Assembly: GCA_965205215.1 (NCBI GenBank)
Contig: OZ242041.1
Location: forward strand, 192,001-256,000
Direction of reading: 5' to 3'
Origin: Nitrosopumilus sp.
GTDB taxonomy: Archaea > Thermoproteota > Nitrososphaeria > Nitrososphaerales > Nitrosopumilaceae
DNA length: 64,000 nucleotides
The position numbers and the translations under genes were made by a program. The notes beneath the pieces were generated by a model, which was not told where the DNA came from, did no database searches, and saw nothing but the letters and a program-made list of their open reading frames with translations. Every line of letters begins with the position of its first letter. The stretch's first letter is position 1. This document shows positions 46,018-64,000 of this stretch, piece after piece.

Positions 46018-48426
46018 TCAGGGCCGGGTCTTGGCACGGGAGCTCAGTCGGGCCCGTGCCAGCCGCGCGCACCCCACGGCCGCAAACGCTGGAATGCCCA
46101 CGTACATTCCAATGTTCAGGAGTATTACCGACATGCCGTACCCCAGCATCTCCGCTTCCGTGTCGATGCCCGCATGCTCCAACAGCGAGAGTGACGACAG
46201 CATTGGCGTCAGCAGAACCTTGGTTGCCTCCCTGATTGCCGGGTTCTCCCTCTGAATGTCTGCCACAGACGGGGAGAACGTATAGTATATGGAATTGAAG
46301 CCAGACATGAATGCGGTTCCGGATGAGGTTGCAAGTACGGTGCTGTCCCTCAGCTCCCTGAGCTGCTGGACTTGGGGCGCAAGCTCGGAACCAAATGCGG
46401 CAGTCGCGATAAGGCAGCCGCCGCCTTCGTCTGCGGGAATCTCGACGGCATCATCCATCATCGTGACGTGTTTCTGCCTCATCGTCTCGTGGTCGGCCCG
46501 CATCATGTCGTGGTCGTCACTCATTGCCTTGTGATCCTTCACCATAGTCTCGTGCAGGCCCATCATTTCATCGTGCATCTGCGCCATCATCATCATCATC
46601 CCGTCGTCACCCATGCCCGTACCGTGCCTGTCCATTACCTGCATGTGCTGCTGCATGACCGTCTCGTGGGCCTCGACCATCTCTCCATGCCCTGATATCT
46701 TCGCCTCATGGTCCTTGATCATCCTCATGTGCGCATCAATGTCCATGGGATCGCTGTCGTCGCTCATCATGGCCTCGTGCTCCTTCATCATGGCCTCGTG
46801 CTCCTTCATCATGGCCTCGTGCTCCTTCATCATGGTCTCCATCTCGTTGTTCATGGCGGCCATCTCGTCTTGTTCCGTGTCGCCGCCCATCATCATGCCG
46901 CCGTGGTCCATGCTGTCGCCGTCGCCGTCGCCGCCCATCATCATGCCGCCGTGGTCCATGCTGTCGCCGTCGCCGTCGCCGCCCATCATCATGCCGCCGT
47001 GGTCCATGCTAGACATGTCGTGCGGCTCGCTGATCACAAAGGAGATCCTAACAGACGAGGAGGTTCCCTCTATGTTTGCCACCTCGAGTGTTGCAATACC
47101 CGTCTCATCAAACGTGGCCGTAATGCGGTCACCCCCCTCGGGCGCCTCGCGTCCGGCCTCGGACAGCACGACATCGTCGCCTAGTGACAGTCTCATGTCG
47201 TACGTGGCCCCCGGAATATGGTCGTCAGAGCCCTCATGACGGATCACAAGTGACAGCGTCAGCTCGTTTCCGGGATGCAGCATGCCCGCAGGCTCAGCCG
47301 ACACGCGCACGTCATAGTTCCCGTCGGCGCCCCCAGTCGACCTCGTTATTACCGCGTCCCCCGCCTCAATTGACGCGTCGCCGCTTATCTGGTGCTGGCG
47401 CTCGGCGCCGGCCCTTATCTCAAACACCATCCTGTCAAGATACCCGGGTTCCAGATTTTGCATCATCTCAAGCAGCTTGCCAGAGGACAACAGGTAATGC
47501 ACCACCGTCTCATCACTGCCGGAGCGGTCCACCGTGCCGAAATAGTCCATTCCGTTTACTGCAAGCAGTATGTCATGGTTCTCAAAGAGATCAATTGATT
47601 TCGGGATGAAGAACTCGGCGTGGATGAACGATGCCGCCTCTATGTACTCCTCGGTCCAGACAAACGGCATCTCTACTGAGACACTCCTGGCCTGTTCGTC
47701 GTATGAAAATTTGTCAACCCTGTCAAAATAAGTGGCAAATGTGATATCCGACGGCATGCCGTCAATCTCGACTGTAAACGGAACATACTGGCCCATGCTG
47801 AACATCACCTCGAAGGTGGAATCCTCGCCAGCGGACACGGGCTGCGAGTCAATTGACTTGACTGTCGCATGTACGTAGACTATGCCTCCCTCCAGAAATA
47901 CAGGGGCCTTCAACGTGGCCGGGGAGTCGTCGGATGCCAACCAAGATCCCTCCTTGGCGCTCTCGCCGGATACCTCGACGGGTGCATCCGTGGAAGGTTG
48001 GATCAGGATACTCAGACTTTCACCAGGCGAGTACGCGTCAAGGGATGCAAGCGAGGCGTCCCTGTCACTGCCATCGACAAACGTCAGGCTGTACTCTACG
48101 CCGGACACTGAGATGGCAGGTTCCGCGTCCACATTCACCAAGGATATGGTCATTGCGACATGCTCCTCGTCACCGCTCAATATTGCAGGGTTGGTCGTGA
48201 TCTTGAGCATGTGATAGTCGCCGTTTATCAGCAAGAGTTCACTGTCAGCTGAACCGGAACTTCCCGCATAAGCCTCCTCAAACATGCCGTCATACGCAAA
48301 GAGTACGGATGCCGACACAAGCGTCGCCACAAGCATGAACGACAGTGCAGTATGTCCAGACCCATGCCGTTGCAACACAGTACCATATGGAACGGACGCA
48401 GTATAACTGTCAATCGCAGCGCTCAT
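46018..48426 (-). CDS. Secreted CFI-box-CTERM protein with Met/His-rich repeat region
   Basis: Signal-like hydrophobic segment, beta-rich domains, Met/His tracts, GGGCLIATAAFGSELAPQVQQLRELRD, C-terminal TM plus basic tail; start uncertain. Confidence 0.88.
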   Translation of the reverse strand: MSAAIDSYTASVPYGTVLQRHGSGHTALSFMLVATLVSASVLFAYDGMFEEAYAGSSGSADSELLLINGDYHMLKITTNPAILSGDEEHVAMTISLVNVDAEPAISVSGVEYSLTFVDGSDRDASLASLDAYSPGESLSILIQPSTDAPVEVSGESAKEGSWLASDDSPATLKAPVFLEGGIVYVHATVKSIDSQPVSAGEDSTFEVMFSMGQYVPFTVEIDGMPSDITFATYFDRVDKFSYDEQARSVSVEMPFVWTEEYIEAASFIHAEFFIPKSIDLFENHDILLAVNGMDYFGTVDRSGSDETVVHYLLSSGKLLEMMQNLEPGYLDRMVFEIRAGAERQHQISGDASIEAGDAVITRSTGGADGNYDVRVSAEPAGMLHPGNELTLSLVIRHEGSDDHIPGATYDMRLSLGDDVVLSEAGREAPEGGDRITATFDETGIATLEVANIEGTSSSVRISFVISEPHDMSSMDHGGMMMGGDGDGDSMDHGGMMMGGDGDGDSMDHGGMMMGGDTEQDEMAAMNNEMETMMKEHEAMMKEHEAMMKEHEAMMSDDSDPMDIDAHMRMIKDHEAKISGHGEMVEAHETVMQQHMQVMDRHGTGMGDDGMMMMMAQMHDEMMGLHETMVKDHKAMSDDHDMMRADHETMRQKHVTMMDDAVEIPADEGGGCLIATAAFGSELAPQVQQLRELRDSTVLATSSGTAFMSGFNSIYYTFSPSVADIQRENPAIREATKVLLTPMLSSLSLLEHAGIDTEAEMLGYGMSVILLNIGMYVGIPAFAAVGCARLARARLSSRAKTRP
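46765..46835. repeat. 21-bp tandem repeat x3 encoding (MMKEHEA)n
   Basis: Unit CATCATGGCCTCGTGCTCCTT. Confidence 0.9.
46879..47010. repeat. 48-bp tandem repeat x2.75 encoding SMDHGGMMMGGDGDGD
   Basis: Read directly from the sequence. Confidence 0.9.
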
Positions 48427-48442
48427 ACCAACCAAGCCTCCA

Positions 48443-50416
48443 TTATGACGGGATCTCCACGAATATCTCAGAACCGTCGTCGCCCGCAGAGGTGCCCGTG
48501 TCCAGCACCAGCGCCCGTGTAACGATATCCAGTGAGTCGGCAGTCGTATACGGATCTGGGAGTGTAAGATCCTCATATTCGATGTATATGGTGTCGCCGT
48601 CCGACACGCGCAGCCTGTCCTGACTGTCGGAGCGATCCGTAGTGGTCATGATGAACTCACCCTCCAGATAGTTGTAGTGGTGGGGGTGATCATATCCCTC
48701 GAGGTAGTCAGGCACGTTTCCCTCCTCAAACGAGTCGTGTCTGGGCACGACTTCCTTGATTACTGCCTCCGGAGCCACTTGGAATGAAAAGTTGACCTGC
48801 TGTGATGCATCATCAAAGATGTCCTTTATTACGATACGGACGGATCCTCGCTCGTCAAACCGGATTGGCTCGAGGCCCTGTCCGTCCGCAAATGAGCGGT
48901 CGGCACGGGTCTCGACAAGCTCGCCGTTGAGGTATACCTCCATCGTATATGTCAGGCCCATCTCGTGCACGTCGGTCATACCGTCGTGCGCCATGAGGTT
49001 GACTACATAGTCCTGGCCGACTCCGAGCAGCCCCCCAGGCTCCCACCAAAAGTAGACCTTCCACCTGCCGTCTTCCGTATATTTCGTAAGCGAGCTTGCG
49101 GCAGGCTCCGTAAGGTGTCTGTCACTGAATCCGTCTTGGATGGTGGCGTGCTCCATAAATGGAGTAAATTGTACACCCACATGAATTCCGGTAAGATCAG
49201 TATCAGAATATACACGGACATAATTGGTGTGGAATTCGGCGTGATGTATCCACAGATCCTTGTCGCGCAAGAAGAACGTGACCTTTTCATTGACATCATA
49301 TACCGGTTTGTGGAATTGAACCTCTCCAATCTCCCATTCGTATGTCGCAGATTTTTGTATGATCGTATCCTCGTTTGGTTCCCAGGATACGGTAATCCGT
49401 CCGTCTTGCGGTTCTGTTGCTATCAGAACGGCGCGGTCATGAGATGAGATCTCGGCGCCGCTGTTGTGCTGGGGCGCGGTCATGTCGGGCGCGGTCATGC
49501 CGCCGTGGCCTCCGCCGTGCTGGGGCGCGGTCATGTCGGGCGCGGTCATGCCGCCGTGGCCTCCGCCGTGCTGGGGCGCGGTCATGTCGGGCGCGGTCAT
49601 GCCGCCGTGGCCTCCGCCGTGCTGGGGCGCGGTCATGTCGGGCGCGGTCATGCCGCCGTGGCCTCCGCCGTGCTGGGGCGCGGTCATGTCGGGCGCGGTC
49701 ATGCCGCCGTGGCCTCCGCCGTGCTGGGGCGCGGTCATGTCGGGCGCGGTCATGCCGCCGTGGCCTCCGCCGTGCTGGGGCGCGGTCATGTCGGGCGCGG
49801 TCATGCCGCCGTGGCCTCCGCCGTGCTGGGGCGCGGTCATGTCGGGCGCGGTCATGCCGCCGTGGCCTCCGCCGTGCTGGGGCGCGGTCATGCCGCCGTG
49901 GCCGCCTGAATGTCCCCCGCCATGGGCGGGAGGCCCGTTTTCGGTGGAACCGGTCACGCCATGGGTGGATATACTAGTATGAAACGAATCGTGTACGAGA
50001 TAGTTAGGCGCTCCGGTCATCTTGACAACACCCATAAATATTCCAGTATCAAATCCGGTCTCCGAAAAGTCCACCTCCGTGACTCTCTGCGGGCCGGTAT
50101 ACACCTTGATTGGGTTCTCCGGCGTGCCGATAACGTCTATCTTGTCAGAGTCGTCGTTCCAGCCCGGCGCGTATATCAGGACGTTTATACGATCCGTCCA
50201 TCCTAGCCCCTCATACCTTTCGTTACAGTCCTGCAGGGTGAACGCCTCGTTTGTACAAAATTTCATTATAATTCCAGTAGTCTTTTTTACAATCGTAAAA
50301 CCTGTCTCAGCTGATGCAGACTGCAACAGCGTCGGGGCGATCGCAGCAGTGCCTATAATCAATATTGCCGCAACAGTAGCGCCGGCCAGAACTGTTTTGT
50401 CCGGCATACCTACCAT
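48443..50416 (-). CDS. Secreted S-layer-protein-related protein with His/Met tandem repeats
   Basis: Signal peptide; WTD.I.V.I.AP..N.DSD.ID.IG, ETG.DTGIF.G, W.IGEVQ, V.SD.D..GI, RLRVSDGDTI..EYED.TLPDPYTTAD.LDI resemble the remembered Nitrosopumilus S-layer protein C-terminal domains. Confidence 0.75.
   Translation of the reverse strand: MVGMPDKTVLAGATVAAILIIGTAAIAPTLLQSASAETGFTIVKKTTGIIMKFCTNEAFTLQDCNERYEGLGWTDRINVLIYAPGWNDDSDKIDVIGTPENPIKVYTGPQRVTEVDFSETGFDTGIFMGVVKMTGAPNYLVHDSFHTSISTHGVTGSTENGPPAHGGGHSGGHGGMTAPQHGGGHGGMTAPDMTAPQHGGGHGGMTAPDMTAPQHGGGHGGMTAPDMTAPQHGGGHGGMTAPDMTAPQHGGGHGGMTAPDMTAPQHGGGHGGMTAPDMTAPQHGGGHGGMTAPDMTAPQHGGGHGGMTAPDMTAPQHNSGAEISSHDRAVLIATEPQDGRITVSWEPNEDTIIQKSATYEWEIGEVQFHKPVYDVNEKVTFFLRDKDLWIHHAEFHTNYVRVYSDTDLTGIHVGVQFTPFMEHATIQDGFSDRHLTEPAASSLTKYTEDGRWKVYFWWEPGGLLGVGQDYVVNLMAHDGMTDVHEMGLTYTMEVYLNGELVETRADRSFADGQGLEPIRFDERGSVRIVIKDIFDDASQQVNFSFQVAPEAVIKEVVPRHDSFEEGNVPDYLEGYDHPHHYNYLEGEFIMTTTDRSDSQDRLRVSDGDTIYIEYEDLTLPDPYTTADSLDIVTRALVLDTGTSAGDDGSEIFVEIPS
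49467..49874. repeat. 51-bp perfect tandem repeat x8 encoding APQHGGGHGGMTAPDMT
   Basis: Eight identical units with no spacers, plus a partial unit extending to about 49925. Confidence 0.95.
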
Positions 50417-50465
50417 ATATCACATAGCAGATTTGCCTATAAAAAATAAGGCGCGTATTTGAAAT

Positions 50466-51929
50466 ATGTACCAATTCAGTCATAGTCAGAGGACGCGGAT
50501 ATTGATCATGCACCAGCTGATGTCAGGGCCCGTTATGGTAATGGTGGCCGCAGTAACGCTTGCTGTCATGCTGGCAGCACAGGTGTCCGTCGTTGTGGCA
50601 CAGGAAGAACATAATGCTGAAATTCCGGACTGGGTCAGGGAGGCGGCCGAGAGGTGGCTCGAGGGCAAGATTTCCGACGGCGATTTCTGGGACGCGCTCA
50701 CCGTACTGGCTAAATCCGAACTGGCAAGGGATGACGTGCCCGGCTCCATGAACGTTCCGACTGCGAAAGCAGGCACGGCCTCTATGGCGGCCCCTCTCAC
50801 GCCGCGGGTGATCGAGTGGATCGAAACTAGGACGGCATGGTGGTTGGATGGGAAGATCACCGACGGGCAGTTTGTGAGCGCCATACATCACTTTGGTAAG
50901 GCAGGGTATCTCAGCCGGGACGGCATGCAGGGCATGGAATTTGACATAGAGGCGGAGGCGCGTCAGACATTGGAGGAGACGCCCATAACAAGCCTCCTCC
51001 TAACAGAGCGTGAGATAGACAGGATAACAAAGGTGTCAAAATGGAGGTTTGTTTCCACGGAGGAGGGATTTGACAAGACGGAGGGGGTGGAGGATTCTGC
51101 CAGGGTCCTGATGAGGGACATCAGCAGGACATACGATCCCGTATTCAACAAGTACCAGATTCCCACCATGTACATGAGCATTACGCGACTCTCCGACCAG
51201 GCAGGCGCCTACGACTATTGGGCCGATTACACAAACCAGACCATACAATCCCTTTTTGAATCGGCGCACATGACGGGGCGCGTATCAGACGGCATCGAAT
51301 GCATCTTTGGATATTCAGACGAGGGGGCGGTCACCACCTGCGCGTACAATGACCTGGTAATACAGGCCGTCATATTTGACGCGTATGGCGAGCATTACCT
51401 GTACAGGACGCCGGACATCGAGATTGACAGGACGGAACCCACCACGAACATCATGGATGGAATAATCAGAAAGATATTTGCCATCAGCGGCAACGACTCA
51501 TATTCCGCGGGCATGCTCGTCCGCGCGCTGCAGGAAAATCCCCTAGTACATGATGATGTCGGGGCTCCAACCCAAAACAAACCGAGCGCGGACGTTGCGG
51601 ACACCGTGAATGATACAGGGGGCGATGTTGTTGCGGCCACGGGCCAGCAGCAGCAGCAATGGACGGATCCAGAAACGTCTCCCAGATACGGAATGTCGGG
51701 GCTTTTCTGCTCGCGCGACGACTTTGGCACCATAACGATCACGGGCGCATACACCAACGACGAAAGTCCTCGAAACGTAACCAATGTGGACATAGTATTC
51801 GTGGACTGGGACGAAAACATCATAGGCAGGACGTCGATATCGTTTGCAGACCTAGGCGAGTTTGAGACAAAGCGGTTTTACGGACACGTAAAATGGGACG
51901 GGAACTTTGCCCTTTGCAAGACACCGTAG
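50466..51929 (+). CDS. Secreted protein with two IP.W....A.WW-type surface modules and a C-terminal FxLYD-like Ig domain
   Basis: Signal peptide; IPDWVREAAERW.EG.ISD..F and EWIETRTAWW.DG.ITD..F; VFVD.D.NIIG....L...ETK.F. Confidence 0.7.
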   Translation: MYQFSHSQRTRILIMHQLMSGPVMVMVAAVTLAVMLAAQVSVVVAQEEHNAEIPDWVREAAERWLEGKISDGDFWDALTVLAKSELARDDVPGSMNVPTAKAGTASMAAPLTPRVIEWIETRTAWWLDGKITDGQFVSAIHHFGKAGYLSRDGMQGMEFDIEAEARQTLEETPITSLLLTEREIDRITKVSKWRFVSTEEGFDKTEGVEDSARVLMRDISRTYDPVFNKYQIPTMYMSITRLSDQAGAYDYWADYTNQTIQSLFESAHMTGRVSDGIECIFGYSDEGAVTTCAYNDLVIQAVIFDAYGEHYLYRTPDIEIDRTEPTTNIMDGIIRKIFAISGNDSYSAGMLVRALQENPLVHDDVGAPTQNKPSADVADTVNDTGGDVVAATGQQQQQWTDPETSPRYGMSGLFCSRDDFGTITITGAYTNDESPRNVTNVDIVFVDWDENIIGRTSISFADLGEFETKRFYGHVKWDGNFALCKTP

Positions 51930-51939
51930 GGTTCAGGGC

Positions 51940-52007
51940 CTCCTGCCCTCTCCACCCTCCTGCCCTCTCCACCCTCCTGCCCTCTCCACCCTCCTGCCCT
52001 CTCCACC
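51940..52007. repeat. 17-bp intergenic tandem repeat x4
   Basis: Unit CTCCTGCCCTCTCCACC between convergent genes. Confidence 0.92.
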
Positions 52008-52052: not shown

Positions 52053-53567
52053 CTAGTCCTCTGCCGACCCTGCCAGCACACCGGAGAACTCGTCCACAAC
52101 GTCGGCAAATCTTCTGGAATCCGGCCTGTGTCGTGCATACTCGACGCTGCCGCACGCTACAAGCCACCTCCTGACCGTCTCGTATTCTACACTGGAGGAG
52201 CCAAGCTTCTGCCGCATGCGCGCGAGCAGCTCCTCGTTTGTGGGCCGCCCCTGCAGTCCCGTACGGTGTGCATAGAAGAGCCGGATCGCATGCCCGAGCG
52301 CCTCGTGGGCCTCTTTGTGCCGCCCCGCGTCATAAAGGTCGCGCGCATGCGACAGCATCCGACCCGTCAGCCCCCTATAGTTGTATGAGGTTTCAGGTTC
52401 TACCTCACCGGCCGCTACCAGCAGCGATTCCTCGGGCTCGGCATGCCTTTTTTGGAGCATCCTCCACGCGGCATAGCCGGCGGCGGCGGCCAGTCCCGCG
52501 GCCGCGGATGCGGCTAGTATAATGGCAAGCTGGACATTCCCGTCCCGGTCCTGCGCGGGGAATGCCGGCGTTTTTGCATCGAGGTTTTCCAGGCCCACAC
52601 GGACGCGCCCCGCATCCTCAAAGCCAGGCCGCGGCCTGTCGTCAAACAGGTCGCCTATTATCGGAACGGCAGGCTGCTGCAACTCGTCCGTGTCGGGCGG
52701 GAGCGGCTCCGGACTCGACAGGCTGTACAGCTCGGGCTCCGGTTCTGGTTTGTCCGGGGCAAGGAGGACCTGCCCTATTATGCCAGACGCCTGTTCCGAG
52801 AGGGACTCTATCATCCGGGATTCCAGCTGAGACTCGTCAAATACCATATGGTTTGGGGAATACGCGCGCAGGTCGCCTGCTCCCGCCCCCATCAGGGCCG
52901 ACTCCCCGAGCAGTTCGCGTCCGAACGTAAACTCCATCGGCGAGAAGATGTCGTTCGGTATGGCCTGCAGGTTGTCTAGCGAGTAGCCGCGCTCCAGCAC
53001 AAAGATCTCCAGGTTGGAGTTTACAGGATAGTCGTATGCGGATCCCGCTATGAGGTACATCTGCTTGCTGATAGGATCCAGCAGGGCCTCGGCAATCTCC
53101 ACATAGCCGTCGGAGAACCTGTCATAGTATTTGATCTTGTGGCGAAAGCTCTCGGCCTGCAGCTCCTGCTGGTCTATTATGATCTGGTTGAGCAGCTGCC
53201 CCTCCTCAGAGAATATGGATATCCTGTAGTCGCCCACAGAGTACTGGTTGCCAGTGACAAACCTGTCGTATCTGAATTCCCGTTCCAGTCCCGGCAGCGA
53301 CGCGGCTAGGGGATCGTCATATGTGGGGCCGCCGTCGGCTCCAGCAGCCGCATCATCATCATCGGCGTGCCTCTCGACTACCACTGTCACGTCTCCATTG
53401 TCACCCCCTTCGCCCCCCACGGCGCCCGACTCCGTACGTGGGTGCGGCTGCCCCTCTATCGACCAGCGGACTACAAGGTCATCGGCCTGCGCGTGTACAG
53501 ATGATATCATGGCGGCAGCGACAACCAAAAGCACGGCGGCCGTTGCAGTTGCAACGGGCAGGCTCAT
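52053..53567 (-). CDS. Membrane-anchored protein with cytoplasmic DUF4129/DUF4381-like C-terminus
   Basis: Signal peptide, late TM helix, then A..L...IR.F......TNEELL....L..C..V.YA; divergent from moxR. Confidence 0.7.
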   Translation of the reverse strand: MSLPVATATAAVLLVVAAAMISSVHAQADDLVVRWSIEGQPHPRTESGAVGGEGGDNGDVTVVVERHADDDDAAAGADGGPTYDDPLAASLPGLEREFRYDRFVTGNQYSVGDYRISIFSEEGQLLNQIIIDQQELQAESFRHKIKYYDRFSDGYVEIAEALLDPISKQMYLIAGSAYDYPVNSNLEIFVLERGYSLDNLQAIPNDIFSPMEFTFGRELLGESALMGAGAGDLRAYSPNHMVFDESQLESRMIESLSEQASGIIGQVLLAPDKPEPEPELYSLSSPEPLPPDTDELQQPAVPIIGDLFDDRPRPGFEDAGRVRVGLENLDAKTPAFPAQDRDGNVQLAIILAASAAAGLAAAAGYAAWRMLQKRHAEPEESLLVAAGEVEPETSYNYRGLTGRMLSHARDLYDAGRHKEAHEALGHAIRLFYAHRTGLQGRPTNEELLARMRQKLGSSSVEYETVRRWLVACGSVEYARHRPDSRRFADVVDEFSGVLAGSAED

Positions 53568-55037: not shown

Positions 55038-56057
55038 ATGGTACGGTGGGTGGAAAAACTGATGTCGGGGACAGATCAGGCGACGGTGACATCCACAGAA
55101 AAGGAAGAGTCGGAGAAGAGGTTTCGCGACGTGGTTGCGGGCGCAAAAAAATTAAACATAGGCGCGTGGTTGCGGCCAAGCTACACGTCGGGGGACCGCG
55201 GCCGGCGACGGCCGGGCGGGGGAATAGAATTCTCGGAGGTCCGGGAATACGCGGCCGGCGACGATCCGCGCCGCATAGACTGGAACGTCTCTGCCAGGCA
55301 CGGCGGGCTGTTCGTAAAGGAGTTTGTCGAGGAGAGCGACCTTGACATATACGTGGCAGTCGACTATTCGGGCAGCACCTCGTTTGGAAGCGGCCCCAAA
55401 AGCAAGAGGGACGTCATGGTCGAGATCGCAGCGTCCGTCGTACTCTCCGCGCTAAACGGCAGGGACGGCGGCAGGATCGGCATGGCGCTGTTTGCAGAGT
55501 CGTTAGAGTCGTTCACAGGGGCAAGAAGGGGCAGGCGGCACGCAATGGGAATGATAAGAAAGATGGTGCTTGATGGGCTCTCCGAGTCGTACCGGCAGGG
55601 CAAAACCGGCATTGCAAGATCAATGTCGCGTCTTGCGCGTGCGGCGGGGCGCAGGAGCGTCATGTTTGTAATATCTGACCTTGAGACGGGCGAACCTCTC
55701 GCCGAGGCACTGCGGGGCGCATGCGCCAGGCACGAGGTCGTAATGATCCGCGTGCACGATCCGCACGAGCGCATACTGCCGGACATCGGATACGCGTATC
55801 TGGAGGACATGGAGACGGGCGGACAGATCCTGGTCAACACGTCAAGCAGGGAGGTCAGGGACGCGTACCGTGCCGCGGCGCGGCAGGCGGCCGGGCGTGC
55901 AAGGGAGGAGGCGCTCAGGGCGGGCGCTGCATACATCGACATTGCAACAGGTGAACCGTTTGACGCGGCGTTCAACAGGTACGCGGGGACGGTTGCGGCG
56001 GCAGCGGCCATGACGACGGGCGCATCCAGAAGTGCGGCAAGGAGGAGGAGGCGATAA
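55038..56057 (+). CDS. DUF58 domain protein
   Basis: G.EF.EVREY..GDD.R.IDWNVSAR, VKEF.EE, D.SGS..FG, VISD, V.DP.E. Confidence 0.92.
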   Translation: MVRWVEKLMSGTDQATVTSTEKEESEKRFRDVVAGAKKLNIGAWLRPSYTSGDRGRRRPGGGIEFSEVREYAAGDDPRRIDWNVSARHGGLFVKEFVEESDLDIYVAVDYSGSTSFGSGPKSKRDVMVEIAASVVLSALNGRDGGRIGMALFAESLESFTGARRGRRHAMGMIRKMVLDGLSESYRQGKTGIARSMSRLARAAGRRSVMFVISDLETGEPLAEALRGACARHEVVMIRVHDPHERILPDIGYAYLEDMETGGQILVNTSSREVRDAYRAAARQAAGRAREEALRAGAAYIDIATGEPFDAAFNRYAGTVAAAAAMTTGASRSAARRRRR

Positions 56058-56062
56058 CAGAC

Positions 56063-57028
56063 GTGCAGTTTGAACACGCACACATGCTGTTGCTGCTTTT
56101 TGCACTGCCGGGCCTGTATATCCTGTATTCGAGGTATAACGCGGGAAGAAAAGAGTCCGTCCTGAGGTTCAGCTCCATCGAGACGGTTACAAGGGCGGTG
56201 GCAGGAAGGCAGGGCGCGTGGCGCAGGCACCTGCCGTTCACGCTAATGGCTGCGGCGGTCGCAATGGCCGCGGTCGCAATGGCCGACCTGCAGGTTCCAG
56301 TCGTCACAACAGACGTGCCACCGGATACGAGGGACGGCAGAAGCATCAGCATAGTGCTTGATATCTCTGAGAGCATGTCGGCCACAGACTATGCGCCAAG
56401 CCGACTGGACGCGGCAAAACAGTCGATAACGAGGCTGATTCAGGGATCGGATCCCCAGGACTATGTCGGCGTGATACTCTTTGAGACGGGCGCCACCACG
56501 GCATCCTACCTGACTGACAACAAGCAAAAGGCGTCTGAGGCCGTAATGTCCATAGGCCAGAGCGGAGGGGCCACGGCCATCGGGGACGGGCTTGCGCTCG
56601 GAGTCGACATGGCGATCTCCATACCAGACAGGCGGGGGGTGGTGATACTGCTCAGCGACGGCGTGCACAACTCGGGGCAGATCACCCCGCAGGAGGCCGT
56701 CGAGTACGCGCAGAGGGCCGGCGTGCGGGTCCACACCGTAGGAATAGGATCGGTGGAGCCGGCCTTTGTCAAAAATGACGTGTTCGGCCAGCCGCAGTAT
56801 GCAGAGCTTGACGAGGCGACGCTCGCACACATTGCAAACGCGACGGGCGGCACATTCTCAAAGTCCCTTGACGAGCAGACGCTTGGAGGCACGCTCGCCG
56901 AGATAGGCGCCGCGCTTGGGGGGGAGGTGAGATACCAGAGCGTCAGCGACTGGTTTGTCGCGTCGTCCCTCGCGCTACTGGCATCGGCCATGTACACCAT
57001 ATATGGAAGGTACAGGATTGCCGCATGA
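56063..57028 (+). CDS. BatA-like VWA domain membrane protein
   Basis: N-terminal F.H...LLLL BatA segment, MIDAS DISESM, TAIGDGL, LLSDG, LDE..L..IA..TGG, C-terminal TM. Confidence 0.92.
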   Translation: MQFEHAHMLLLLFALPGLYILYSRYNAGRKESVLRFSSIETVTRAVAGRQGAWRRHLPFTLMAAAVAMAAVAMADLQVPVVTTDVPPDTRDGRSISIVLDISESMSATDYAPSRLDAAKQSITRLIQGSDPQDYVGVILFETGATTASYLTDNKQKASEAVMSIGQSGGATAIGDGLALGVDMAISIPDRRGVVILLSDGVHNSGQITPQEAVEYAQRAGVRVHTVGIGSVEPAFVKNDVFGQPQYAELDEATLAHIANATGGTFSKSLDEQTLGGTLAEIGAALGGEVRYQSVSDWFVASSLALLASAMYTIYGRYRIAA

Positions 57029-57066: not shown

Positions 57067-57591
57067 CTAGGAGGAGCCCAGTGGGTTTATCATGTCCTCA
57101 AAGTTCGAGGCGTACCTGCCAACCAAGCTCGGACCGTGATCCTCAAGCAGGCGGTCTACGCGCTCCCGATCCCGGAGCCGGTAGTGCTTTTTGAGCTTGG
57201 GCATACGCACGTCCACCAAGCTCTCCCTTACCAGCTGCGACAGATACAGGGACACAGTAGAGGGGGATTTTTTTACCCTCTCCACCAGCTCTGCAAACGA
57301 GAGCCCGTTCACGTTTTTGGGATCCTCGTGCAAAAGCGCGATTAGCAGCGCGCGGGGGGTGGGCCTGCGCAGTGCCCGGATTATGGCATGATCTGACTCT
57401 GGTATCCGCACGGAATAGAACCGGGCGGTGCGCGGCCGGCGCCTTGCAATTATCAGATTGTTGTTCTCCAGCTTGGCAAGATGGTACGACAGCACGCCGT
57501 TCATGAGTCCGGTCTTGCGCATGATTCCCCTAAAGTTTATGCCGGGGTTTGACTCTATGGCCTCTAGTATCACATCGGACTTGTCAGTCAT
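57067..57591 (-). CDS. Double winged-helix transcriptional regulator
   Basis: I..NPGI.FR.I...G..NG.L.YHL..LE, and a second wHTH (F.EL...V.KSPSTVS.YL..L). Confidence 0.88.
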   Translation of the reverse strand: MTDKSDVILEAIESNPGINFRGIMRKTGLMNGVLSYHLAKLENNNLIIARRRPRTARFYSVRIPESDHAIIRALRRPTPRALLIALLHEDPKNVNGLSFAELVERVKKSPSTVSLYLSQLVRESLVDVRMPKLKKHYRLRDRERVDRLLEDHGPSLVGRYASNFEDMINPLGSS

Positions 57592-57979
57592 TTCGCAGCG
57601 CCCCCAGAGCCAGCAGTCCCAGCGTGACGAACATCAGCAGGTGTCCCACCTCGTATATGTACACGTCCCCCAGGTTGATAATCGAGAGATCCAGCACGTA
57701 GGCAAGCAGCAGGGCCTCTGTAAACACAAAGTTTGCAAATGCAATCGTGGTCAGCAGCAGGCGTCTTGAGCGCAGCGTGCGGTACGAGATGGTGGCCAGC
57801 GTCGTGATAAACAGCGCGAGTATCATGCCGCCCGTGTGAAGCAGTATGTGGGCCGCGTGGAACCCGTGCATAAGGTGCGGAAACGCCATCGGGATCAAGA
57901 ACGTCAGCGCGATGCCCAGAACCGCAACCGGAAACAGGTTGGTCAGGCTGGAGCGTAGCGACTGGACGTATGCTACCAT
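57584..57979 (-). CDS. Small 4-TM membrane protein with His cluster
   Basis: Four hydrophobic segments, PHLMHGFHAAHILLH, EVGH; overlaps the regulator start by 8 bp. Confidence 0.75.
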   Translation of the reverse strand: MVAYVQSLRSSLTNLFPVAVLGIALTFLIPMAFPHLMHGFHAAHILLHTGGMILALFITTLATISYRTLRSRRLLLTTIAFANFVFTEALLLAYVLDLSIINLGDVYIYEVGHLLMFVTLGLLALGALRND

Positions 57980-58110
57980 ACATAGGGTAGGCCTTGTTCT
58001 AATTTAAGACACGTGGTTCGAACGCCAGTCTGCAGGCGCGGCGGCCTGCGATGCCGCGTCAAAAAGGCGGAGTCAAGCGCCCGCACGGAAGGCGCGCCAT
58101 ACCGTAAGAC

Positions 58111-58869
58111 TCAGACCTGTATGATTCCGGCCGTAATCAGAAACTGCAGGGCGCCCACGAACGTGGCGTCGTCTATCAGGCCGTCGGCCCACCACCCGGC
58201 GTTGGTCTTGACCCACGGCGGGATCTGCGGCCCCGGCGCGTCCTCTCCTTCCCCTCCGCCGCCGTCCGCATCACTCCCTGGGTCACTGGCAGCGTCGTCG
58301 GCGGCGGGAACGACCAGTATGCCGCTCCGTATCAGGTACTCGATTCCGGATACGAACGTGGCGTCGTCTATCAGGCCGTCGGCCCACCACCCGGCGTTGG
58401 TCTTGACCCACGGCGGGATCACCGCCACGTCCGGCGCTGCGGGTGCCGACGCATCCTCCCCCACCGGTATCTCAAAGGATACGGCCTCGGCTGGAATGGG
58501 CTGGAAGAGTATTCCCTCCACTGTAAAGCCCAGGGAGTGGACGCCTGGATTCTGGAACTGTACAGGGAGCGTTATGGTGCCGGGAGACGTATGTATGAGA
58601 TTGGTGGGTCCGAATACCTGCTCCCCGTCTCTGGTGATCGTAATCGTATAGTCTATGTGCTCCTGAGTCCTACCGGTTACGGGATTCAGAAAATCCACCT
58701 TGATCTTTGTCTCCTCGCCCGGCATTATCACGTCATCATACACGAGATGGACGTCTATGGTTCCCTGCTCGGTGGGCAGGGTCTGGGTCTCTGCATGCGC
58801 CTGGTGCCCGGCGGCAAGCACGCATACGGCAACAAGCACCAGGGCAACCAAGACTGCCTTCATAGACAT
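58111..58869 (-). CDS. Secreted Ig-like protein with two IPPWVKTNAGWW modules
   Basis: Signal peptide (..AHA/ETQ), QEHIDY...LIHTS domain, duplicated C-terminal module. Confidence 0.82.
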   Translation of the reverse strand: MSMKAVLVALVLVAVCVLAAGHQAHAETQTLPTEQGTIDVHLVYDDVIMPGEETKIKVDFLNPVTGRTQEHIDYTITITRDGEQVFGPTNLIHTSPGTITLPVQFQNPGVHSLGFTVEGILFQPIPAEAVSFEIPVGEDASAPAAPDVAVIPPWVKTNAGWWADGLIDDATFVSGIEYLIRSGILVVPAADDAASDPGSDADGGGGEGEDAPGPQIPPWVKTNAGWWADGLIDDATFVGALQFLITAGIIQV

Positions 58870-58995
58870 GATACGTGTTACACAGATAAAAAACGTTCCA
58901 ACGCGGGGCCCGACGGCGGGCGTAACCGCGCATAGGCAAAGGCGCACGCACGCGCCTCTTTGATCTTTAAATATAGTGTGAAATTATTTACAATA

Positions 58996-60744
58996 TTGCA
59001 CAACAGGCTCGCACTGCTAGCGGCCATGGCCGCCATTGTCGTAATTCCGGCGGCCGCCCAGTCGGTCTCGGGGCACGGACTCGGGGGCGACCAAGCGCCG
59101 CCCATCAGCTTTTCGGGGATGGAGGTGACCGTCCGCACGGACCTCACGCCGTCGGACATCACGATAGGTGACATAGACGACGTCAACATGAAGATCAGGT
59201 TCTTCGACACGCTGACGGACACCACGCTTGAAAAGGTCACATACAGGATAGAGATGTGGCGCAGCGGGGAGCTGCTGGCAAGAAACCTGTTTTACGATCC
59301 CGACGGCAGACTCGACGTGGAGATACGCCCCAATCCGGACTGCGACAGTGCGGAGCTGTGGAGATGCAGCGTGTACGGCGGATCGGAGGACATAAGCTCG
59401 CCTGGCGCCCTGTTCGTGTACGGGGAGCCGTGCACCGGCGACAACTACGACGTATGCGCAAGGCCCACCATAACAGGGCCCATATTCGAGAAGGGCGGGC
59501 TGTACCACGTACGCGTCGACATAGAGGGCGCGACCAGCCCCAGGGTGCAGCTTGCAGAGAGGCTGAGCTATGACACGTTTGTCAGCGTGGCCCAGGAGCA
59601 GAACTTTGCAATACAGACAGCCCATGCCGAGGAGATTCCCGTAATAATCAAGACGTACTACGATGATGTAAAGAACTTTGCATTCGAACCGTCGGACAAC
59701 TCCATCACGTTCGACATGGCCTTTGACTGGACGCCGGACTATGTCGACCTGGTGGAGGTGGTGCACGAGGAGGTCAGGATCCCCAAGGACTTTGTGCCGT
59801 ATGCGGAAGGCAAGCAGTTCAGGGGATACGTAAACGGGGTGGAGGTGGACCAGCGCGCCCTGCTAAACGATCCGTACTCGTACGAGGACACGAACGTGGT
59901 ACACTTTCTGATAACCAACAGCGAGCTGCAAAAGATCAGCGAGAACATGGAGGACGACAGGTTCGAGAGCAAGAACATGAACCTGAAGCTAGTTCCCGTC
60001 GAGGAGGCGGAGGTCAGCTCCGTGGAGTTCTATTTGGTGGACCTTGAAACCATGCAGGAGAGGGCTCCTACCACCGTAACCATAGAGTGGGAAGGACAGT
60101 ACGGCGCGGGCGACGAGATCCCGTTTGAGTTCACGTTCCTGGACCGGGACAACAAGCTGATCAAGGACGTCTGGTACGGGTACATAGTGAGCGACGAGTC
60201 AGGCAACGAGATAGCAAGGTTCTCCGGAAGCGACCCGCTCAATACGGGCATAGCATCGCCGGAAGGCATAGACGTGCAGGACATCAGGATACCGTCTGAG
60301 GGGCTGATCAGGGTGGACGTGATAGTATACGGAACCGGCCTCGACTACGACCCCACGTACTCGGGAATCGGGTCAGGACTCATAGAGATCGGGCCCGGGG
60401 CGCCCGCGGGCGGCACTCCCCCAGGCGACGTGAACGAGCCGGCACCAAGCACGGAGGCGGCGGAGATACCGTCGTGGATAAAGACCAACGCGGGCTGGTG
60501 GGCCGAGGGCCTGATAGACGACGCCACGTTTGTGACCGGCATACAGTACCTGATACAGAGCGGGGTGCTCGTGGTGCCGGCAGCCGGCAGCGGCGACCCT
60601 GGCCAGGACGGTGAGGCGGCGGCGGGGATACCGCCGTGGATAAAGACCAACGCGGGCTGGTGGGCCGAGGGCCTGATAGACGACGGATCTTTTGTGTCAG
60701 GCCTGCAGTACCTGATAAAAGAGGGAATAATACGCGTGAGTTGA
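58996..60744 (+). CDS. Secreted thaumarchaeal surface protein (predicted mature N-terminus HGLGG) with two WIKTNAGWW modules
   Basis: TTG start after TTTAAATA; signal peptide; TYYD, VHEE..IP, VHF domain. Confidence 0.85.
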
Positions 60745-60787
60745 CGGCAGTGGCTGCATGCGATAAGCTTTAACACGGAAGACGAGA

Positions 60788-61003
60788 GTGACGGCAATGA
60801 GGGACATAAACGAGATAATGCCAAAGATCGACAACATGAAGTGGGGGGCCCTGACAAACAGGCCGCCTACCAAGGACAGGGTACGGGAGATGGACAGGAT
60901 ATTCCCCGACAACGGCAAGTGGCACACGGTCTTTGAGCACGACGATCTCATATCGATTGACGGAAAGCATATCAGAAGAAAGAGTCCTGACAAGTGGACA
61001 TGA
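60788..61003 (+). CDS. Small hypothetical protein (~70 aa)
   Basis: TTTAA box upstream; Trp/Pro-containing globular pattern (MKWGAL.N..PT, FP.NGKWH). Confidence 0.7.
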   Translation: MTAMRDINEIMPKIDNMKWGALTNRPPTKDRVREMDRIFPDNGKWHTVFEHDDLISIDGKHIRRKSPDKWT

Positions 61004-61006
61004 CTG

Positions 61007-62983
61007 ATGGCAAGCATGGCGGCCATAACTACGACAACGGCAGGACCGATACCCGCGACAAATGGATGGCTGCGATGGCGGCGTCCGGCCCGGCAGCAAC
61101 GGCCACAGCCGTCGTCACGCGGGTACCTTGCCGCAGTTCTTGTCCTGATGGCAGTATGCGCTGCGGCGATGGCCGCATCCGGCGTGCAGCCTGCCGCAGG
61201 CCACGGCACGTCGAGCGAGACGTTTCCCCCGGTAGAACTGAACGGGCAGCAGGTTGCCCTAGAGATATCGTCATCTGCCCCCCCACCTCCGGAGACGACG
61301 GGGCGGCCGCCGGCAGGAATCGCGCCGGGCGAGGACCTGCAGATAGGGATAGCCCTCGTCGACTTTGACTCGAAAGTCACGCTCCGTGACGTGACGTTCC
61401 ACATCAGGGCCGAGCTTGGGAACAAGTTCCTCTTTGAGCAAGAATTCAGGGCCGACAACGGGTTTCTAGTCTTTAATTTTGCATCAGACGACAGCGCGGG
61501 CGGCGAGATAACGGTCCACGACGGAGGGAAGGGAGACGATCAGTATGACATTGTCTCGTACCTGCTCGGAGTCGAGAGCAGGAACGTACGCGTGGCGGGG
61601 CCAAGCCTTGCAGACGGCGGACTCTACAAATTTGGCATTGCCATAACTACGGCAGGCGACTACTCAGAGCGCCTGGATGCACCGATAGAGTACGACTCTG
61701 GGATATCCATACCGATGATAACCACGTACGGCGTAAAGGATCCCAACTTTGGGGATCAGTACATCAGGGCCATTACATACTACGACAAGATAACCGACTT
61801 TGAGTACGACTCCGAGGCGAGGGAGATCAGGTACTCTATGCCGTTTGAGTGGAGCGACTCTAACATAGACCAGTCATACGTGGTGCACGAGGAGCTCTCG
61901 ATTCCGGACACGTACGGGGATCTCCTGCTGTCGGGATTCGAGCTCTACATAAACGGCGTAAGGCTGCCAGAGGAGACGATCCTGATTGACGACTTTTTCA
62001 CGGGGGAGAGAATAGTACACTTTATCGTACCCCAGGAGCAGCTCTACAGCATACGGGACGGCGGCGGCCGGGAGGACGGCATCATGAACTTTGTAATCAG
62101 GCCCGACACCAACCATACGCGCATAGCGTCAGTGACGGAGAACGGCCAGTTCCGGATATTCGCCTCGTGGGAACCGGAGGATCTGAGGTCCGGCCAGAAC
62201 GCTAGGATAATCTTCGAGGTAACAGACGTCTTTTTGAAGGGCGCGCCCATTGCAGCAGAGTACCATTTCTCTGTGACGACGAATGACGGCAGTACCATCT
62301 TTGAGCAGTCAGGTGTCAGCACGGACTCGAGGGACGATCCCACAAACGTGGCCGAGTTTGAGATACCCCAGGACGTCTCTGGAATAGCATATCTCAACTT
62401 TGAGAGGCTGCAGGACAACGAGCGCGCCAGAACATCCATGCCTATCGTAATAGACAGGGTGGCAGGCAGCGCCATCATAGACGACGGCACGATAGGCATA
62501 GCAGCAAGTGAGAACGGGGCGGGAGGGGCAGCCAACAATGGCGGCGGTAACGACGACAATGGCGGCGGCTGCCTCATTGCGACTGCCGCATACGGCTCGG
62601 AGCTTGCCCCGCAGGTGCAGCAGCTCAGGGAGCTGAGGGACAATACCATACTGAGAACCTCGTACGGCACGGCATTCATGTCAGGATTCAACTCCATATA
62701 CTACACGTTCTCCCCAACAGTGGCCGACCTCCAGAGGGAGCACCAAACGCTGCGCGACGCAACCAAGATCGCACTGACGCCCATGCTGGCATCGCTCACG
62801 CTGCTTGACGGCGTCAGCATAGGGACCGAGCACGACATGCTGGCATACGGCATCCTCATTATCGCGCTGAACGTGGCAGTCTACGTGGCATGCCCCATTG
62901 CAGCCATGACCATGGCGTACACGGGGCTAAAGAGGCGAACAGGCGGCAGAAAGACGGCAGCGTGGCGAACCATGATCAACTGA
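61007..62983 (+). CDS. Secreted CFI-box-CTERM protein (predicted mature N-terminus HGTSS)
   Basis: Signal peptide, TYYD/VHEE/VHF domain, GGGCLIATAAYGSELAPQVQQLRELRD, C-terminal TM plus basic tail. Confidence 0.88.
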   Translation: MASMAAITTTTAGPIPATNGWLRWRRPARQQRPQPSSRGYLAAVLVLMAVCAAAMAASGVQPAAGHGTSSETFPPVELNGQQVALEISSSAPPPPETTGRPPAGIAPGEDLQIGIALVDFDSKVTLRDVTFHIRAELGNKFLFEQEFRADNGFLVFNFASDDSAGGEITVHDGGKGDDQYDIVSYLLGVESRNVRVAGPSLADGGLYKFGIAITTAGDYSERLDAPIEYDSGISIPMITTYGVKDPNFGDQYIRAITYYDKITDFEYDSEAREIRYSMPFEWSDSNIDQSYVVHEELSIPDTYGDLLLSGFELYINGVRLPEETILIDDFFTGERIVHFIVPQEQLYSIRDGGGREDGIMNFVIRPDTNHTRIASVTENGQFRIFASWEPEDLRSGQNARIIFEVTDVFLKGAPIAAEYHFSVTTNDGSTIFEQSGVSTDSRDDPTNVAEFEIPQDVSGIAYLNFERLQDNERARTSMPIVIDRVAGSAIIDDGTIGIAASENGAGGAANNGGGNDDNGGGCLIATAAYGSELAPQVQQLRELRDNTILRTSYGTAFMSGFNSIYYTFSPTVADLQREHQTLRDATKIALTPMLASLTLLDGVSIGTEHDMLAYGILIIALNVAVYVACPIAAMTMAYTGLKRRTGGRKTAAWRTMIN

Positions 62984-63040
62984 CCGCATATGTGAACAAT
63001 CAGATAAAAATTTTTAAAACCCAGCGAGTCAAACCATGCA

Positions 63041-64000
63041 ATGAAGACTAGAACAGTCAGTTCATTCTTTTTACTGTCTGTACTCGTAGCGGGAATGATT
63101 GCAACTACCCCCTCAGCGTCTGCAGATCATCCGAACGTAGTGCTTGAGCCCCTTCCGGGGTCGGCCACTGCAGGATGTCAGGATACCGACGAGGGCTGTT
63201 ACAACATACCCATACTGACAGTAGCTCCGGGAACTACCATAACGTTCTCAAACACAGACAACGCAGCACACACGCTGACATCAGGCTCTCCAGCAGAGGG
63301 CATGACCGGCGTGTTTGACAGCGGTTTGGTAATGGTCGGGGCCACGTACGAGTTCACGATAGATGAAGAAGGAGAATACAATCATTACTGCATTGTCCAC
63401 CCGTGGATGACGGGCCAGATCATAGTAGAGGCGGCACACGGTGAGGAAGCAACGATGATGGAAGAGGACGACTCCATGATGATGGAAGAGGACGACTCCA
63501 TGATGATGGAAGAGGACGACTCCATGATGATGGAAGAGGACGACTCCATGATGATGGAAGAGGACGACTCCATGATGATGGAAGAGGACGACTCCATGAT
63601 GATGGAAGAGGACGACTCCATGATGATGGAAGAGGACGACTCCATGATGATGGAAGAGGACGACTCCATGATGATGGAAGAGGACGACTCCATGATGATG
63701 GAAGAGGACGACTCCATGATGGACGAGACGTCAGCGGCAGACGAGGAGACTGGTGGTTGCCTTATTGCAACTGCGGCATTTGGCTCCGAGCTTGCGCCAC
63801 AAGTTCAGCAACTTAGAGAGCTGAGAGACAACACGGTACTTGCCACAGAGTCCGGTACGGCATTTATGTCCGGATTCAACAGCATATACTACACGTTCTC
63901 CCCAGCGGTGGCAGATCTCGAAAGAGAGAACCCGGCGTTCAGGGAGGCAGTCAAGGTGGCACTGACCCCAATGCTCTCCACACTCTCACTGCTAAACCAT
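63041..64000 (+). CDS. Plastocyanin-like blue copper protein with Met-rich stalk and CFI-box-CTERM (runs off window end)
   Basis: Own translation: signal peptide, N.D.AAHT.TSG, FDSG, type-1 Cu ligands YCIVHPWM, (MMMEEDDS)n, GGCLIATAAFGSELAPQVQQLRELRD. Not in the ORF track. Confidence 0.92.
   Translation, partial: MKTRTVSSFFLLSVLVAGMIATTPSASADHPNVVLEPLPGSATAGCQDTDEGCYNIPILTVAPGTTITFSNTDNAAHTLTSGSPAEGMTGVFDSGLVMVGATYEFTIDEEGEYNHYCIVHPWMTGQIIVEAAHGEEATMMEEDDSMMMEEDDSMMMEEDDSMMMEEDDSMMMEEDDSMMMEEDDSMMMEEDDSMMMEEDDSMMMEEDDSMMMEEDDSMMMEEDDSMMDETSAADEETGGCLIATAAFGSELAPQVQQLRELRDNTVLATESGTAFMSGFNSIYYTFSPAVADLERENPAFREAVKVALTPMLSTLSLLNH
63455..63721. repeat. 24-bp perfect tandem repeat x11 encoding MMMEEDDS
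   Basis: Unit ATGATGGAAGAGGACGACTCCATG read directly. Confidence 0.95.

Follow-up and report, generated by a model that had tools for sequence, protein, structure and literature searches.

The last 18 kb of a 64,000-nucleotide stretch of a Nitrosopumilus genome (G000, a single contig of 2,098,239 bp with 60% GC; the stretch, C1:192001-256000, is hereafter the window) consist of two adjoining envelope modules, an accessory block at 46018-57028 (proteins A to G) and a core cluster at 57067-64000 (proteins H to M; Table 1), the latter running on for 9 kb beyond the window, to genome position 265200. Copper offers the best single reading of the region, one to which we give an even chance and which rests on gene association, motifs and folds. 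It is about evenly balanced whether the core cluster is the archaeal counterpart of the ycnKJI copper acquisition system of Bacillus subtilis, with extra carriers, an adjoining accessory envelope block and expanded tracts in A, B and M. An initial annotation made from the sequence had described the 18 kb as one putative cell-surface copper capture, storage and delivery island. The components it listed are all present: an S-layer-like protein with His/Met repeats (B), an anchored protein with His/Met ladders (A), two proteins with a predicted N-terminal His (K and L), an immunoglobulin (Ig)-like protein with a QEH..IH motif (J), a type-1 cupredoxin on a Met-rich stalk (M), MoxR, DUF58 and VWA genes (E, F and G), and a winged helix-turn-helix (wHTH) regulator coupled to a His-rich membrane protein (H and I). 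Their unity did not hold, the A-G block being accessory and separable from the core.

CopC and CopD, whose synteny beyond the window had been suggested as a check, are found 1.2 kb past its end as a single fused protein. The gene order past M is N250 (on the opposite strand), the CopC-CopD fusion, ZnuA, ZnuB, ZnuC and a second ZnuA. Within the fusion, the CopC (46.4 bits) and CopD (51.6 bits) domains both score above their family cut-offs, a Vgb-lyase-type beta-propeller scores 140 bits, and H88 and D171-G-H173 of the CopC domain are invariant in 11/11 sequences; with CopC and CopD above cut-off, an N-terminal His and a D-x-H motif, the protein is YcnJ-like. N250, a 250-aa open reading frame (ORF), is the divergent neighbour of CopCD in 10/10 same-genus relatives and has a YcnI-type architecture, with a signal peptide, an N-terminal His, an extracellular beta domain and a C-terminal transmembrane (TM) helix, encoded beside CopCD (architecture and ligands of YcnI and YcnJ according to passages of PMC8424229). 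Its His1 is invariant in 35/35 sequences, as are E12, W15 and E18. The N250 model, of moderate confidence (predicted local distance difference test, pLDDT, 70), comprises a beta-sandwich (residues 1-110), a helix and a membrane helix (174-200). In structural alignments with VIA, CrdA matches from model residue 1 (Z 9.2, root-mean-square deviation (rmsd) 2.5, 94 residues of a 108-residue chain), alongside DUF4426 (Z 9.2), HftA (8.7), P19 (8.3) and Tp34 (7.8), of which HftA and P19 are copper-binding proteins; in the Atlas, the closest cluster goes by the name YtkA-like (0.96). The N250 profile gave no match among PDB sequences, and hhalign comparisons with the K family (probability 11%) and with J (2%) were not significant. 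Prediction of a complex between the CopC domain (O1032 residues 88-190) and N250 (residues 1-115) scored 0.00 against a mark of 0.32, which is evidence in neither direction.

In B. subtilis, YcnJ is a CopC-CopD-YtkA protein, YcnI, of cupredoxin-like fold with a His-Glu-Trp site, combines DUF1775 with a TM helix, and YcnK is the regulator. The archaeal cluster shares with this system a CopC-CopD fusion in which His1 and D-x-H of CopC are kept (in another archaeal family, genome G032, the fusion also carries YtkA), an adjacent membrane-tethered beta-sandwich protein with an invariant His at its mature N-terminus, and a winged-helix regulator nearby. However, the regulator here has two wHTH domains and a His-ladder membrane protein as its partner, the archaeal CopCD terminates in a beta-propeller, and K, L, J and the cupredoxin are without a Bacillus counterpart. 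The regulator H is assigned to the HVO_0163-type N-terminal HTH family; against the ArsR/SmtB model NF033788 it scores 45.2 bits, below the cut-off of 55, which places it outside that family. In its partner I, the motif PHLxHGxHxAHIxLH is invariant in 7/7 sequences.

Synteny was examined by tblastn and blastp against 40-kb segments, one per genome, of 10 same-genus relatives, and the core cluster is kept in all of them. In 10/10 relatives the backbone reads thiolase, C-N hydrolase, rhomboid, a variable block, the L ortholog and the K ortholog, and onward J (divergent), cupredoxin, N250 and CopCD. After CopCD, ZnuB-ZnuC follows in 7/10 and a ZnuA match in 5/10; the segments taken from G002, G006 and G018 do not include these genes. 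In 6/10 the site before the L ortholog is occupied by the I-H pair, and the L ortholog was found in 24/24 genus genomes searched. Orthologs 61-66% identical to K are Nitrosopumilus by NCBI name, and the homologous region of the same-genus relatives has 33-51% GC. In contrast to the core, the block MoxR-DUF58-VWA-D-C-B stands at the same site in only two relatives (G003 and G014), with remnants in G009, and B occurs in 14/61 genus genomes (9/46 when only those of high quality are counted); this patchiness marks 46018-57028 as an accessory insertion next to a core at 57067-64000. In G009 the block appears to be decaying: the MoxR match falls into two overlapping pieces, likely by a frameshift (concatenated loci L017+L018, ~21860-23918), and the VWA match covers the first 54 residues only. 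The rhomboid protease gene (window 45144-45914, minus strand) borders the cluster in G000 and in 10/10 relatives.

The association extends to another family, where copper and oxidase genes stand together within 12 kb of G032 (42% GC in the stretch fetched). Besides a CopC-CopD-YtkA-propeller protein (954 aa; YtkA domain 34.2 bits), this set contains two K-family genes, a J-like gene, an N250 homolog that has His at its mature N-terminus (E 6e-39), two genes for 176-aa proteins, COX15/CtaA, a cupredoxin, COX1 (464 bits) and COX2. The two 176-aa proteins (L031 10752-11282 and 14125-14655) are secreted or membrane proteins of no named family, one with a predicted N-terminal His (AYA then HQLF).

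In the K alignment as in the L alignment, A-x-G/A followed by H-G comes after the signal peptide in 11/11 sequences (cleavage sites judged by eye from sequence), so that both proteins are predicted to start with His when mature. J, in which His97 and His119 are invariant (11/11), matches the last domain of the K family in hhalign (probability 96.7%, E 3.5e-10), and in relatives carries a CFI box in place of the WW repeats. Family scans with Pfam (E up to 5) gave no family for B, C, D, J, K, L and N250 and only sub-threshold chance matches for A and I; with NCBIfam (E up to 0.01) nothing was found for C, D, I, J, K and N250, and only the CFI box for A and L. The NCBI label 'peptidase' on the K orthologs was considered and rejected: neither Pfam nor NCBIfam finds a peptidase family, and the AlphaFold2 model is Ig-like beta-sandwich throughout, in agreement with the earlier remark that no protease motif can be seen despite that label.

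An exhaustive search with the K ectodomain returned 379 representative clusters (E up to 0.001), covered by no Pfam model. Six full-length members of the family are encoded in G000, four of them within genome 238-267 kb, and D197, W219, H231, E233, N254, D266 and H277 are near-invariant. For comparison, histidine-brace copper proteins of the LPMO, CopC and PmoB type combine a family-wide N-terminal His with a second His near it in space; two of the near-invariant K-family residues, H231 and H277, are His. The family profile finds only weak alpha-2-macroglobulin MG-domain matches in the PDB (E 0.0045). The K model (94-row alignment; pLDDT 93, predicted template modelling score 0.89) as a whole retrieves only generic multi-Ig structures with Foldseek (complement MG domains, arrestin, a Haloferax S-layer protein; TM-scores 0.22 or less). 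Its last domain (residues 312-440) taken alone has as top VIA match Helicobacter pylori CrdA (Z 11.6, rmsd 2.4, 104 residues of the 108-residue chain aligned), with PmoD (9.4), HftA (8.7), P19 (8.2) and CopC (7.2) among the others. CrdA, described as a CopC/PcoC-like protein in passages of PMC9182242, is thus the top fold match of both N250 and the last K domain, and N250 starts with His like CopC; the differences from CopC, PcoC and CrdA are that there is no match at the sequence level and that N250 is without a conserved second brace His.

Compared with 10/10 relatives, the segment holding the N-terminal part of L, all of K and the N-terminal part of J is inverted in G000 (58111-62983). The breakpoints fall within linkers; J has gained the WW repeats of L, and L the CFI box of J, with both frames open. 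The inversion is a natural exchange of C-terminal anchors. A search for inverted repeats at the breakpoints brought up only WW-repeat arms and none that convinced.

With 26.0 bits against PF00127 (cut-off 21.2) and a readable H, C, H, M ligand pattern (AAHTLTSG ... YCIVHPWM), M is, on these sequence criteria, a genuine type-1 cupredoxin. It scores 31 bits against the amicyanin equivalog (cut-off 110) and is therefore a member of the fold family only. The full-length protein has 371 aa and runs 156 nt beyond the window, and its anchor scores 73.7 bits against CFI_box_CTERM. None of the contigs listed (32 of 234, from four runs) bridges the 24-bp array of its stalk, so the copy number of that array is unconfirmed. 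In low-GC relatives the linker of the orthologs is short and of the DDHGDDHGDEMMM type, and these proteins also have a second domain rich in His together with a PEFG-CTERM signal (49 bits); those of G002 and G018 carry other Met/acidic repeat units at the same linker. An hhalign comparison of the second domain of the G021 cupredoxin with J was not significant (4%), the EHxxH/Y register looking alike by eye. Cupredoxins are also joined directly to the K-type ectodomain, once in the G003 ortholog of A and once in G000 itself, in a fifth family member (genome 1763246-1765339). In this protein an A-like ectodomain is fused to two WW repeats and a cupredoxin that scores 37 bits against PF00127, and the G003 fusion is of the same make-up.

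Protein A adds a Met/His tract to such an ectodomain. Its start was placed at Met81 of an 852-aa ORF (the longest ORF, reaching 48576) by alignment to the G003 ortholog, giving 772 aa; it matches the hidden Markov model (HMM) of the K family (E 1.2e-60) and CFI_box_CTERM (69.7 bits, cut-off 40). Genome-wide counts were made on a greedy set of 1754 ORFs of G000. The motif HxxMxxxHxxM occurs 7 times in A and 0 times in the other 1753 ORFs, and A has 3 MxxHx(5-6)HxxM motifs. HxxM/MxxH occurs 19 times in 186 aa of the tract against a proteome rate of 0.118 per 100 aa; by this count A ranks first (21) and B second (10), the next-best protein having 5. The tract includes 48-bp (2.8 perfect copies) and 21-bp tandem repeats. 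Only five other proteins with a related tract (78-94% identical, 734-860 aa, one with a duplicated module) were found in a collection of 5.8 billion sequences. In gap-free columns His is invariant at 17/17 and Met at 36/38 positions, against 75/110 for other residues (Fisher p 1.7e-5), a test that overstates significance, the five tracts compared (that of G000 and those of four of these proteins) being close kin.

Because its motifs are of the SilE/PcoE type (HxxMxxxHxxM and MxxH...HxxM spacing, as in passages of PMC5008109), we infer that the A tract is a membrane-tethered Cu(I) buffer, a "sponge". It would then be an archaeal analogue of the SilE/PcoE metal sponges of the enterobacterial sil and pco operons, with which it shares, besides these motifs, a disordered look, an extracytoplasmic location and a copper neighbourhood. 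It differs from them in its archaeal host, in being an internal module of a 772-aa anchored protein rather than a free 14-kDa protein, and in consisting partly of perfect tandem repeats; homology to SilE or PcoE was found in neither Pfam nor NCBIfam, the sole family match of A being the CFI box.

Among the 60-aa segments of the proteome richest in Met and His, 6 of the top 8 lie within genome 223.7-265.2 kb, ~2% of the genome, namely in the CDF transporter, A, B, M and the two ZnuA paralogs. Counting the nearby Zn proteins with their His/Asp repeats, six of the eight most Met/His-rich segments thus fall within 42 kb. The CDF cation-efflux gene (window 31678-33399, minus strand; PF01545, 129 bits) contains a 12-bp repeat x 24 (32278-32561) that codes for a (GHEH)n loop of ~100 aa inside the protein. 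The two ZnuA genes flank ZnuB and ZnuC (L027 5435-6991 and 8686-10200; genome 260435-265200), 4-9 kb past the window, and both have a long His/Asp/Met repeat loop of the DDDDHGMEAM type; in relatives there is a single ZnuA, whose loop is far shorter.

The Met/His repeats are, from their distribution among relatives, lineage-specific expansions, as the initial annotation had proposed in supposing repeat expansion where copper is contested, for example in a host, and they occur in a genome found within sponge metagenome runs. At least part of window 54001-64000 is contained in 20 of the 24 runs listed, and at least half of the sampled words in 8, of which X3 bears the sponge metagenome label and the other 7 have coded organism names; the label is carried by 6 of those 20 runs that are not RNA libraries. 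Passages of PMC11812461 report larger, higher-GC genomes in sponge-associated ammonia oxidizers than in free-living relatives, a pattern that G000 fits. Contigs from RNA libraries (2 studies) span J-K and M, which can show neither the level nor the strand of transcription.

In the accessory block, B aligns to residues 1376-1614 only of the Nitrosopumilus maritimus S-layer protein (NmSLP; Nmar_1547, PDB 8c8k; E 3e-23), i.e. it matches membrane-proximal Ig-like domains. Homology to lattice domains 1-8 was not found; B has 657 aa against 1734 aa in NmSLP, lacks the lattice-forming domains 1-7, and carries a 150-aa His/Met repeat inserted in a loop, at the junction of NmSLP residues 1466 and 1469. 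This insertion is absent in 2/2 aligned orthologs. Against the Kustd1514 S-layer model, B is far sub-threshold (15.7 bits, cut-off 1400), and an Atlas search with B returned unnamed clusters only. Weak low-complexity PDB matches to TAL-repeat proteins (E above 0.06) were treated as chance. Two ~2468-aa proteins encoded elsewhere (genome 570334-577737 and 594144-601553) have the C-terminal domains of B and are likely the true S-layer proteins of the organism, a paralogous pair. Orthologs of C adjoin B and D in G003 and G014, and D orthologs stand in the same block of both; C is without a Pfam, NCBIfam or PDB relative, and D gave no family match and no PDB sequence match. The MoxR AAA+, DUF58 and VWA proteins, encoded in adjacent genes, all score above their Pfam cut-offs. 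They belong to the same three families, in the same order, as the Bat-type MoxR-DUF58-VWA chaperone operons, and are co-directional with D, C and B in G014, but differ from those operons in having these three partner proteins, which occur in these archaea only. The short convergent C/D spacer holds a perfect 17-bp tandem repeat (4.3 copies, CCTCCTGCCCTCTCCAC, window 51939-52011), and the 400-nt AT-rich divergent D/MoxR spacer ~4 copies of imperfect, CAAAGTAACG-like 10-bp repeats (window 53824-53870), which may be a regulatory site.

Table 1. Features of the accessory block and the core cluster, with the copper gene past the window (window positions unless a locus is named)
Feature	Position	Strand	Description	Basis
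A	46018..48336	-	K-family multi-Ig ectodomain + 200-aa Met/His tract + CFI-box-CTERM anchor	NF041770; K-family HMM
Met/His tract of A	46423..47025	-	47 Met + 19 His in 200 aa	
B	48443..50416	-	S-layer-base-like protein, 657 aa	PDB 8c8k match, E 3e-23
Tandem repeat in B	49466..49892	-	51 bp x 8.4, 100% identical, encodes GGGHGGMTAPDMTAPQH	
C	50466..51929	+	Membrane/secreted protein, two N-terminal WW-type repeats + globular domain without family	
D	52053..53567	-	Bitopic membrane protein without family	
E	53970..55019	+	MoxR-type AAA+ ATPase	PF07726 (AAA_3), 193 bits
F	55038..56057	+	DUF58 protein	PF01882, 192 bits
G	56063..57028	+	Membrane VWA protein, BatA type	PF13519 68.9, PF00092 68.2, PF07584 31.6 bits
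H	57067..57591	-	Regulator, two winged-helix domains	PF24266 (HVO_0163 N-terminal HTH), 36.9 bits, cut-off 31
I	57584..57979	-	Small polytopic membrane protein, His ladder	Upstream of H, 8-nt overlap
J	58111..58863	-	Single beta-sandwich domain + two WW repeats	hhalign to K-family last domain
K	58960..60744	+	Multi-Ig ectoprotein, predicted mature N-terminus His-Gly, two C-terminal WW repeats	
L	61007..62983	+	K paralog, predicted mature His-Gly N-terminus, CFI-box-CTERM anchor	NF041770, 74.9 bits
M	63041..64000	+	Amicyanin-like type-1 cupredoxin + (MMEEDDSM)n + CFI-box-CTERM anchor	PF00127
Tandem repeat in M	63454..63721	+	24 bp x 11.2, 100% identical, encodes MMEEDDSM; Met-rich stalk	
CopC-CopD-propeller fusion	L027 2212-5310		1032 aa, past window end	PF04234, PF05425

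As a plausible mechanism, the CopC-CopD fusion would correspond to YcnJ and N250, in architecture, to YcnI; K, L and J would be Ig-like proteins tethered in the pseudo-periplasm, M a membrane-tethered cupredoxin, and I and H a candidate membrane sensor and its regulator. Cu(II) would be bound at N-terminal His sites, passed among the tethered proteins, and then delivered either to CopD or to cuproproteins, among them cupredoxins and complex IV. MoxR-DUF58-VWA would act as a remodelling set within the accessory block, and the loops and linkers of A, B and M have been expanded to Met/His-rich tracts in the sponge-associated lineage. Gene content, homologies, synteny, repeat structure and His/Met conservation are observations; the steps of metal binding and metal transfer in this scheme we infer. 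The copper theme of the initial annotation stands insofar as the cupredoxin M, the CopCD synteny, the cupredoxin fusions in G000 and G003 and the motifs of A speak for it, and is weakened insofar as the theme may be metals generally. A directional relay from the S-layer to cuproproteins, and a copper role for MoxR, DUF58 and VWA, found no support in the form in which they had been put, the relay being conjecture throughout. A bolder version seems to us rather unlikely. In it, the K/L/A family, N250 and J would make up a novel class of copper proteins in the pseudo-periplasm of ammonia-oxidizing archaea (AOA); they would dock tethered cupredoxins and join CopCD in metallating or wiring complex IV and possibly those copper enzymes that oxidize ammonia, and sponge symbionts would have added SilE-like Met/His modules.

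Several observations weigh against the copper reading. N250 has one invariant His only, is neither DUF1775 (PF07987) nor YtkA by sequence (no match to either model with Pfam at E up to 5), and YcnI is outside its top 50 VIA fold matches. Generic MG and FN3 domains are scattered among the Ig-like fold matches, Z values of 7-10 being common for such models, and in K the CrdA-like last domain contains neither His nor Cys, a single Met and no Met-rich loop. The predicted first mature residue of the K family is His in 56/94 representatives and Asp in 29/94, and in the Asp group position 223 is Arg, which would fit a structural contact better than a ligand. K-family genes stand away from CopD in two of the three other-family genomes that have both (G027 and G038), where no N250 homolog was found with the query used, and COX1 of G000 lies ~450 kb off, unlinked to the cluster. 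Repeat expansions also occur in the nearby Zn proteins (the two ZnuA and the CDF transporter), and a Met/Glu linker of MMPQEEEAMMAQEEEE repeats is found in an unrelated 760-aa protein (genome 1571193-1573475, minus strand), which shows that Met/acidic linkers are not restricted to copper-linked genes; the expansions may reflect a genome-wide habit or metals in general. As for the anchors, the CFI box (NF041770), present in 7 copies in G000 and followed by hydrophobic tails in A, L and M, is also attached to unrelated proteins, e.g. a cyclophilin, and the 35-aa WW repeat occurs in 16/1754 ORFs, again including unrelated proteins. By their distribution, both are generic anchors. The WW repeat gave only chance-level PDB matches (E 0.37 or worse), and 'CFI-box-CTERM' was not found as a term in the literature searched. 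In addition, Reyes et al., in the passages considered, report a CopC/D fusion downregulated in N. maritimus under Cu limitation.

In a rival explanation, the region would be a generic envelope-architecture cluster, with S-layer, spacer and adhesion Ig proteins on interchangeable anchors, linker expansions that are neutral, of low complexity and typical of a high-GC symbiont, and copper genes as uncoupled neighbours. K is indeed a string of Ig domains matching complement MG domains, arrestin and a Haloferax S-layer protein, B is S-layer-like, the generic anchors have been exchanged by an inversion with both frames open, the 100% identical repeat units point to recent expansion, and a Met/Glu linker is found in an unrelated protein. 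However, His and Met in the A tract are more conserved than other residues among homologs 78-94% identical, two families retain the linkage to N250 and CopCD in spite of a changed gene order, K-type domains have been fused to cupredoxins twice, and Met/His-rich segments cluster strongly in one region. We regard this explanation as unlikely, if clearly worth keeping in mind. The region could alternatively be a neighbourhood of general divalent-metal, mainly Zn, homeostasis, in which His tracts buffer Zn, Ni or Co for the flanking ZnuABC and CDF transporters. SilE folds with Zn and Ni too, less than with Ag, according to passages of PMC5008109. ZnuB, ZnuC and two DDDDHGMEAM-type ZnuA lie 4-9 kb past the window, a (GHEH)n CDF transporter is encoded at 31678-33399, and His and Gly abound in the B repeat. 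In the A and M tracts, in contrast, the predominant residue is Met, which as a soft ligand suits Cu(I) and Ag(I) and not Zn; the repeats of the Zn proteins are His/Asp-rich and visibly of other composition, and the conserved neighbours are a cupredoxin and CopCD. We consider a Zn-centred role improbable.

More improbable still is an electron-transfer module, in which the K/L/A ectodomains serve the respiratory or ammonia-oxidation chain as docking platforms or redox partners of tethered cupredoxins, with the Met-rich tracts as sacrificial antioxidants. Ectodomain-cupredoxin fusions do exist, the G032 cluster adjoins COX1, COX2, CtaA and a cupredoxin, and the near-invariant D197, W219, H231, E233, N254, D266 and H277 suggest a functional site in the K family. 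Yet no cofactor-binding family is recognised, the K family is without Cys ligands, COX1 of G000 is unlinked, and N250 and CopCD would be left unexplained.

On the copper reading, the cluster bears on a wider question, since the energy metabolism of AOA runs on copper and the delivery of copper to extracytoplasmic enzymes is obscure beyond the naming of CopC/D (passages of PMC7785015). The same source reports that, in Nitrososphaera viennensis, Cu limitation induces CopC/D clusters that also contain an HTH-ArsR gene and uncharacterized exported proteins. Beside CopCD, the cluster supplies concrete candidates, i.e. a YcnI-like N-terminal-His protein, a multi-Ig family twice fused to cupredoxins and a tethered cupredoxin, all of them abundant Nitrosopumilus proteins labelled "hypothetical" or "peptidase". 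The lineage-specific Met/His tracts of a sponge-associated genome would be a natural experiment on metal capture at the archaeal envelope; Nitrosopumilus, methionine-rich and copper were not found together among the literature matches listed. Elsewhere in the window, 36255-41402 (minus strand) encodes a class II-type ribonucleotide reductase (907 aa) and, beside it, a 709-aa protein composed of a DUF7347 HTH, an ATP-cone and an NrdD-like domain.

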